In this document: positions 57,917 to 57,999 of the stretch, in pieces | Layout of the letters: each line of letters begins with the position of its first letter | Position numbering within the stretch: position 1 is the first letter of the stretch | Source of the DNA: Shigella phage Henu11 | DNA length: 64,000 nucleotides | Sequence record: OM953433 | Reading direction: 5' to 3' (one strand) | Made by a program: the position numbers and the translations under genes | The notes under the pieces: generated by a model | The model's database searches: none | What the model saw: only the letters and a program-made list of their open reading frames with translations | What the model was told of the DNA's origin: nothing

Positions 57917-57999
57917 ATGGGACGATGTTAAGACACTAAGGCATGTGCGTAAGCCTCCAAAACTTACTCAAAGGGGTTCGATTCCTCCGTCCCATGCCA
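57917..57999 (+). tRNA. tRNA-like gene, non-canonical (anticodon unresolved, possibly Trp CCA)
   Basis: acceptor ATGGGAC/GTCCCAT and T-loop TTCGATT clear; 48-nt body does not fold into standard D and anticodon arms. Confidence 0.4.

Follow-up and report, generated by a model that had tools for sequence, protein, structure and literature searches.

Irregular transfer RNAs (tRNAs) of the E-loop (8/4) type, which carry an extra loop between the acceptor stem and the D-stem, were described from acidobacterial polycistrons (Mukai et al. 2017, PMC5389517; reviewed in PMC7609411) and are the only described tRNAs with an extra loop at this position. Bacterial tRNA-Trp(CCA) genes in which the anticodon stem is 'unpinned at the bottom' were counted, not characterised, by Fakih et al. 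2026 (PMC13092985). The identity determinants of bacterial tRNA-Trp are C34, C35, A36 and G73, with A1-U72 and G5-C68 in a minor role, and G2-C71, G3-C70 and G4-C69 in B. subtilis (PMC9976931). The subject of this report is an 83-base element on the + strand, at positions 57917-57999 of a 64,000-nucleotide stretch of DNA from Shigella phage Henu11 (sequence record OM953433), the whole of which is referred to as the window. The element is probably the phage's functional, structurally atypical tRNA-Trp(CCA) gene. A Trp tRNA was among the options raised in the first-pass annotation of this DNA, and that option is essentially right in view of the Trp identity elements, the covariation in four helices and the genomic slot, in which about two dozen relatives carry a different tRNA-Trp.

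Compared with E. coli tRNA-Trp (trpT), all segments of the element were of canonical length except the linker between the acceptor stem and the D-stem, which has 9 to 10 nucleotides (nt) instead of 2. The two have in common the segment lengths apart from this linker, the anticodon loop CUCCAAA, G73, A1-U72, G5-C68 and a short variable loop, and outside the linker they are identical at 40 of 74 positions (window sequence) or 46 of 74 positions (main sequence type). They differ in the 9- to 10-nt linker, which stands in place of U8-A9, and in the D-stem of the element, which has three Watson-Crick pairs. Further differences are a C.A mismatch at 31.39, where E. coli has U-A, an A.C at 49.65 (unless the arrangement is 8/4), and U2-A71 in place of G2-C71.

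The E-loop tRNAs resemble the element in the place of the extra loop, in a possible acceptor stem of 8 base pairs (bp) with a 4-bp T-stem, and in their location within tRNA gene clusters. They come from soil Acidobacteria, show unusual combinations of anticodon and identity elements, have links to toxin-antitoxin loci and could not be charged with the E. coli enzymes that were tried, whereas the element is found in lytic phages of enterobacteria, and its Trp identity set is coherent; this comparison was made from the published description. The bottom-unpinned tRNA-Trp(CCA) genes share with the element the CCA anticodon, a non-Watson-Crick closing pair and an apparent loop enlarged by 2 nt to 9 nt, and differ from it in that, as far as they have been described, their linker and D-arm are normal. 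The anticodon helix of the element is deduced to be shifted rather than shortened because a fifth Watson-Crick pair is found at its top (26-44 in host-based numbering). By homology and fold the element is a tRNA, and by its identity elements it is a Trp tRNA; it fails on the 2-nt linker with U8 and on the curated score thresholds.

Sequence layout and covariation

The element reads ATGGGAC-GATGTTAAGA-CAC-TAAGGCAT-GTG-C-GTAAG-CCTCCAAAA-CTTAC-TCAAA-GGGG-TTCGATT-CCTC-C-GTCCCAT-G-CCA, and its segments are listed in Table 1. Several features reported from the first reading of the sequence were confirmed, namely the acceptor stem ATGGGAC/GTCCCAT with 7 of 7 pairs, the discriminator G, the encoded CCA, the T-loop TTCGATT and an anticodon-like hairpin in which GTAAG/CTTAC encloses a 9-nt loop containing CCA. 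The accompanying statement that the 48-nt body could not form both a D-arm and an anticodon arm was too strong, as a 3-bp D-stem and a 5-bp anticodon stem both covary.

The window belongs to a FelixO1-like phage of the Ounavirinae. Over this region its identity is 100% with Shigella phage Henu12 and 85 to 98% with many other FelixO1-like phages of this subfamily (Felixounavirus, Mooglevirus and Suspvirus). A search with the element and short flanks matched 242 phage records; in 230 the match extends over 80% or more of the query, and among the 60 matches listed not one has a tRNA annotated at the element. A diverged copy was found in Pectobacterium phage Wc4. Scans of viral contigs (IMG/VR) and distant BLAST searches gave no homolog outside the Ounavirinae.

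The major evidence for a conserved cloverleaf was the covariation among 11 distinct sequence variants, assessed over 19 pairs. Standard pairs were formed in 99.5% of the alignment cells, and double (compensatory) changes were observed in 8 of the 19 pairs, spread over four helices. The observed covariation score was reached by 0 of 500 shuffles, sliding the 3' partners by 1 to 3 columns left 0 compensatory pairs, and RNAalifold independently predicted the same four helices. The anticodon stem showed compensatory changes in four of its five pairs, with CCA, U33 and A37 invariant; it takes the form GUAAG/CUUAC in the window, AACGG/CCGUU in most Felixounaviruses, GACGG/CCGUU in the Sf14 type and GUAGG/CCUAC in Wc4. 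The D-stem alternates between CAC/GUG and CUC/GAG, its middle pair being A-U in five variants and U-A in six, and its C-G pair is replaced by U.G in Wc4. For the acceptor stem, replacement of A1-U72 by G1.U72 or G1-C72 and of U2-A71 by C2-G71 was observed. A G-C pair of the T-stem becomes U-A in the Sf14-type variants, and the T-loop retains U54, U55, C56 and A58. This 7-nt loop fits the UUCRANY pattern and is closed by G53-C61. No open reading frame (ORF) longer than 27 amino acids (aa) overlaps the element. Taken together, the covariation, shuffle, register, RNAalifold and ORF results rule out chance and make a drifting pseudogene very unlikely. On this comparative evidence the element is a real, selected and structured RNA gene, homologous to tRNA over its full length, with its cloverleaf kept under selection.

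Anticodon loop and tryptophan identity elements

The inner seven bases of the anticodon loop, CUCCAAA, are identical to the loop of E. coli tRNA-Trp, with U33 and A37 in place. The 31.39 pair flanking these bases is C.A in 10 variants and C.C in Wc4, and is never a standard pair. The two possible readings of the loop, nine unpaired nt or a 7-nt loop closed by a mismatch, share identical Watson-Crick pairs; of the two, the 7-nt CUCCAAA loop over a C.A mismatch is the preferred reading. The segment comprising the 3' strand of the D-stem, position 26 and the anticodon arm reads GAGCA-ACGGC-CUCCAAA-ACCGU in the main type and GAGCA-CCGGU-CUCCAAA-ACCGG in E. coli tRNA-Trp. With respect to the Trp determinants, the element carries G73, C34-C35-A36, A1-U72 (G1.U72 in some variants), G3-C70, G4-C69 and G5-C68.

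The acceptor-to-D linker

The linker reads GAUGUUAAG(A) and has no equivalent of U8 beside the stem. Nine of its 12 alignment columns are invariant in the 11 variants, and two of the three variable ones exist only through a 2-nt insertion in Wc4. The one base change is a U-to-C in PC79-13; otherwise the linker is identical, Wc4 included. Apart from the variable loop and GCCA it is the best-conserved unpaired segment, and this strong conservation suggests a role of its own. The first-pass annotation had considered a Trp tRNA with an unusual D-arm. The Trp tRNA part of this proposal stands, while the defect was misplaced: a D-arm, though small, does exist, and what is anomalous is an insertion of 7 to 8 nt in the linker before it.

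RNAalifold pairs the first G of the linker (G8) with C65 (57988), giving an 8/4 instead of a 7/5 arrangement of the acceptor and T-stems. Since G8 and C65 are both invariant, covariation does not separate the 8/4 form from a 7/5 form with an A.C mismatch; the acceptor/T branch has 12 bp in either form. Two further pairings were tried and rejected. AUG in the linker could pair with CAU in the D-loop, but the U-to-C change in PC79-13 disrupts this pairing and Wc4 lacks it; a UGU/ACA pairing involving the linker is lost in the main type. Inspection of the alignment by eye revealed no 6-bp, Sec-like D-stem. The extra loop would be expected to bulge near the face where class II tRNAs carry their long variable arms, and may be tolerated for this reason.

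Detection by tRNA finders and covariance models

Standard tRNA finders are deduced to miss the element because of the 7 to 8 extra bases between two of its arms. When eight linker bases were removed in silico and T8 was restored, ARAGORN at its default settings called a tRNA-Trp(cca); when exactly seven linker bases were removed, with A.C kept at 10.25, the call was not restored. Relaxed ARAGORN settings, which had been suggested as a check, did not help with the native element, on which the program was still silent at -ps80. A structural scan of the + strand of the window identified the element as the sole locus uncalled by ARAGORN that has a perfect 7-bp acceptor stem and a T-arm.

The Rfam tRNA family RF00005 gave no match to the element at its gathering score, and other Rfam families matched at noise level only. 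The best permissive match was to tRNA-Sec (RF01852), with 20.1 bits (E=0.09) against a gathering score of 47. In this match the anticodon arm of the element is aligned as a 6-pair stem and the T-arm as four pairs. A tRNA-Sec identity was rejected on the score and on the lack of a long variable arm, a UCA anticodon, a 13-bp acceptor/T branch (8/5 or 9/4) and a 6-bp D-stem. A covariance model built from the element aligned end to end with the ordinary tRNAs of these clusters, with a systematic 7-nt gap at the linker. Among the non-self matches of this model, the canonical tRNA-Trp of an Erwinia phage ranked second, just under a tRNA-Cys. The model gave no second insertion-type copy in the window, typing phage 15, Wc4 or the Erwinia phage.

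The Trp slot in the tRNA cluster

ARAGORN called 26 tRNA genes in the cluster at 55464-60863, all on the + strand and together covering every amino acid but Trp. The published tRNA inventory of phage Sf14 gives 26 tRNAs for '19 amino acids' with Trp not listed, and the published set of Felix O1 is also without Trp. The Sf14 genome contains the element, and since its inventory nevertheless lacks Trp, the gene is taken to have been overlooked rather than reported.

In about 24 Ounavirinae (LNA1 included), a different tRNA-Trp(cca) of 71 nt, which ARAGORN calls, is found in the same slot behind the same upstream block, and in these genomes the 83-nt gene is absent from that place. An intact canonical homolog, of which the element would be a copy disrupted by indels, was not seen among the relatives; the slot holds either the 83-nt gene or the unrelated 71-nt tRNA-Trp. 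The 71-nt allele, as in O157 typing phage 15, shares with the element the anticodon, G73, the slot and the upstream block, and differs in having a reduced D-arm instead of an insertion and other acceptor and T-arm sequences. In E. coli O157 typing phage 15 it lies at L001 625-695 and has a degenerate D-arm of about two pairs; it is labelled 'tRNA-Pseudo' in one record. A 134-aa ORF that follows the 71-nt allele gave a weak, sub-threshold HNH signal, and relatives have an HNH homing endonuclease annotated there, an annotation which suggests cassette exchange by homing.

Another tRNA-Trp, canonical and 76 nt long, was found between Gly(tcc) and Thr(tgt) in the Erwinia Ounavirinae phage FIfi106 (L106 4286-4361). 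In the window this Gly-Thr slot is deduced to be empty, as the two genes lie 6 nt apart. The Erwinia Kolesnikvirus gene resembles the element in its anticodon, G73, the C31.N39 mismatch and a similar anticodon arm, and differs in its slot (Gly-Trp-Thr) and its normal 2-nt linker. It is called by ARAGORN at default settings with only three Watson-Crick pairs in the anticodon stem, the mismatches being U27.U43 and C31.C39. This may be relevant to recent work that connects short anticodon stems in tRNA-Trp(CCA) with UGA reading. In the position equivalent to that of the element, after tRNA-Arg tct (L106 ~3666-3751), FIfi106 has an unannotated tRNA-like 3' half consisting of a GGTTCGAATCC T-arm followed by CACTCGCCA. 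ARAGORN reports it as 'tRNA-Stop(tta)' at a very relaxed threshold, and the covariance model of the element did not match it.

Weighing of the alternatives

A number of observations weigh against a functional tRNA-Trp. The native element is passed over both by ARAGORN at default settings and by Rfam at the gathering threshold, and its 2-71 position is U-A rather than the B. subtilis determinant G2-C71. The single-sequence folding energy was not significant in comparison with shuffled controls (z = -0.81), and the case rests on the comparative evidence because folding energy alone does not separate the element from chance. Within the comparative data, two IMG/VR contigs have a U.U mismatch in the T-stem, and the acceptor stem of Wc4 requires a bulge or a G.U pair. 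The missing U8 and a linker five times the normal length could disturb the tertiary core. In the study of Mukai et al., neither of the two E. coli synthetases tested (GlyRS and ThrRS) charged the E-loop tRNA, and a literature search found no description of the present gene and no expression, processing or aminoacylation data for it.

The uncharged E-loop tRNA, and other irregular tRNAs in the same study that were charged yet unused in translation, would also suit a tRNA-shaped RNA that does not decode and acts instead as a decoy or sponge that occupies a host tRNA-targeting defence nuclease or modification enzyme, as a ligand of a phage protein recognising the conserved extra loop, or as a processing signal in the cluster transcript. 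Such a role would be consistent with the linker conservation (9 of 12 columns invariant), which suggests a specific interaction, with the lack of U8 and the failure of standard tRNA models, and with the known interaction of phage tRNAs with tRNA-cleaving defences. It is considered unlikely. A decoy would need no intact Trp identity set, yet G73, A1-U72, CCA, U33 and A37 are invariant or conservatively varied; in the same slot a more ordinary tRNA-Trp can take the place of the gene; and the gene is the sole Trp-anticodon gene in a cluster otherwise covering 19 amino acids. A processing signal is additionally disfavored by the adjacent genuine tRNAs, which already supply such signals. The element could also be a working Trp tRNA with an altered body that reads UGA as well as UGG, in the manner of the Hirsh suppressor or of a tRNA-Trp with a 4-bp anticodon stem. 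UGA reading by tRNA-Trp(CCA) is reported to increase, in E. coli among others, with A9C, G24A or a shortened anticodon stem (PMC13092985); the element lacks A9, its 11-24 pair is Watson-Crick and its anticodon stem is unpinned. Its 8-9 linker is wholly replaced, and its 31.39 pair is never Watson-Crick in 11 of 11 variants; moreover, the Erwinia-phage tRNA-Trp is mismatched at 27.43 and 31.39, and the D-arm of the 71-nt allele is degenerate. The readthrough variants tested, however, were unpinned at the top of the stem, the bottom class being explicitly not studied (PMC13092985), and C27A alone gave no readthrough in vitro. TGA is an ordinary stop in the window (24 of 81 ORFs, with TAA in 45 and TAG in 12), and long in-frame extensions past TGA consist only of the next gene, with its own ribosome-binding site and ATG, or of a tRNA gene. 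No sign of UGA recoding was seen in the stop usage or in-frame extensions of the window, so that the suppressor proposed earlier finds no support there, and dual reading of UGA and UGG is judged improbable.

Rejection of the element by ARAGORN and Rfam would be expected of a pseudogene, that is, of a former tRNA-Trp disabled by the insertion and now drifting. The cluster does hold at least one decayed remnant (56348-56422), one record labels the 71-nt allele 'tRNA-Pseudo', and stem mismatches occur occasionally (L097/L103, A132). Drift would break pairs, but 99.5% of the cells pair and eight pairs are compensatory; the insertion is near-invariant across genera, Pectobacterium phage Wc4 included; the anticodon, U33, A37, G73, the CCA end and the core of the T-loop are all invariant; and the gene is kept in about 230 genomes. 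A pseudogene, which the first-pass annotation had left as an option, is contradicted by the compensatory changes in all four helices together with this conservation, and is deemed very improbable. Expanded anticodon loops are a hallmark of frameshift suppressor tRNAs, and by Watson-Crick pairing alone the loop has 9 nt in every variant, as would suit the reading of a four- or five-base codon. This explanation is scarcely credible, since the inner 7 nt (Y-U-C-C-A-A-M) keep the canonical U33/A37 spacing and are identical to the loop of host tRNA-Trp, and the same mismatch-closed loop is present in the canonical 76-nt phage tRNA-Trp and in 267 bacterial tRNA-Trp genes (PMC13092985). The 9-nt loop had been the ground for the frameshift option; a host-like 7-nt loop over a mismatched 31.39 pair is the better reading of it. 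Nothing in the window pointed to programmed frameshift sites, though no specific search for them was made.

Feature coordinates and neighboring loci

Table 1. Segments of the element and the promoter-like site upstream of it, in window coordinates
Feature	Position	Strand	Remarks
Acceptor stem, 5' strand ATGGGAC (positions 1-7)	57917..57923	+	7/7 pairs with 57989-57995
Extra-long single-stranded linker GAUGUUAAGA, acceptor stem to D-stem	57924..57933	+	canonical length is 2 nt (U8 N9)
D-arm: stem CAC/GUG (3 bp), 8-nt loop UAAGGCAU with G18-G19 equivalent	57934..57947	+	covariation
Anticodon arm: stem GUAAG/CUUAC, loop CCUCCAAAA, i.e. C.A (31.39) closing CUCCAAA	57949..57967	+	covariation
Anticodon CCA	57957-57959	+	invariant in 11 variants
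Variable region UCAA(A), class I (short), 4-5 nt	57968..57972	+	invariant in 11 variants; canonical length
T-arm: stem GGGG/CCUC, loop UUCGAUU	57973..57988	+	outermost 49.65 is A.C, or C pairs with G8
Acceptor stem, 3' strand GUCCCAU, discriminator G73 (57996), encoded CCA	57989..57999	+	GCCA invariant in all variants
Promoter-like site TTGACA-17 nt-TAAGCT	57876..57904	+	read directly; -10 hexamer weak, below scan criteria

The block upstream of the element, with the promoter-like site in it, is conserved in relatives, including the carriers of the 71-nt Trp allele. Near-consensus sigma-70 promoters were found on the + strand inside or ahead of the cluster at 55407-55436 (TTGACA-N18-TATAGT) and 57438-57466 (TTGACA-N17-TATAGT), the latter preceding a 276-nt gap without a called gene and then tRNA-Arg(tct). 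The downstream tRNA-Ser(tga) at 58013-58102 (+) scored only 31.1 bits in Rfam and ends in GCCT, and thus lacks the encoded CCA that most genes of the cluster have. A homologous Ser(tga)-like gene in Wc4 (L003 ~1598-1690) received no ARAGORN call.

Elsewhere in the cluster, a locus at 56348-56422 (+), within the 425-nt gap after tRNA-Asp, gave an Rfam tRNA match of 30.4 bits, just above threshold, on which ARAGORN was silent. It has a good T-arm (GAAGG-TTCGAAT-CCTTC) and a broken acceptor stem, and judging by these features looks like a decayed tRNA remnant. A 161-aa ORF at 56868-57353 (+), located between tRNA-Met and tRNA-Ile, had no Pfam match, and its TGA stop overlaps the start of tRNA-Ile. 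In FIfi106, the region L106 1830-1904, between the annotated tRNA-Pro and tRNA-Ala, gave a full-length match to the tRNA-shaped model with 21.8 bits and is possibly a further tRNA gene missing from the annotation; in the window, tRNA-Pro is followed by Glu.

Proposed function and significance

As a functional tRNA-Trp gene, the element would be transcribed with the tRNA cluster or from the weak promoter-like site upstream. With a start about 7 nt past this site, RNase P would have a leader of about 5 nt to remove in trimming the 5' end of the precursor; the CCA end is already encoded. The RNA is predicted to fold into a cloverleaf with normal acceptor, T and anticodon arms, a small D-arm and a loop of 9 to 10 nt that replaces the U8-N9 linker. 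The features recognised by host tryptophanyl-tRNA synthetase (TrpRS) would be G73, the CCA anticodon and the pairs A1-U72 and G5-C68, and UGG would be the codon that the charged tRNA reads. We infer these four steps, transcription, processing, charging and decoding, for the RNA of the element. The median number of tRNA-Trp genes in E. coli genomes is one; with the element, the phage would own tRNAs for all 20 amino acids and would be independent of the host tRNA-Trp gene.

A more speculative and rather doubtful proposal is that the extra loop and the unpinned anticodon stem are an adaptation. They could serve the reading of UGA in addition to UGG, as a natural phage-borne suppressor of the Hirsh or 'superwobble' type, or they could hide the tRNA from a host factor that inactivates host tRNA-Trp, with TrpRS and the ribosome still accepting it. 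If so, the abnormal D regions of both Trp alleles would reflect a common selection on that part of the molecule. The element is in any case a natural test case for the idea that changes in the body of tRNA-Trp(CCA) tune UGA reading, and its presence in phages of E. coli and Salmonella is experimentally convenient. A conserved natural tRNA with 9 to 10 nt between the acceptor stem and the D-stem would show how much the tertiary core tolerates.

For annotation, the element flags a blind spot of tRNAscan-SE and ARAGORN. The FelixO1-like phages are classic typing and biocontrol phages, and their tRNA sets feed analyses of codon usage and defence evasion, which now count 19 amino acids and no Trp. 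Addition of the element would make this a complete set of 20, which fits the view that these phages are able to gain independence from the host tRNA pool.

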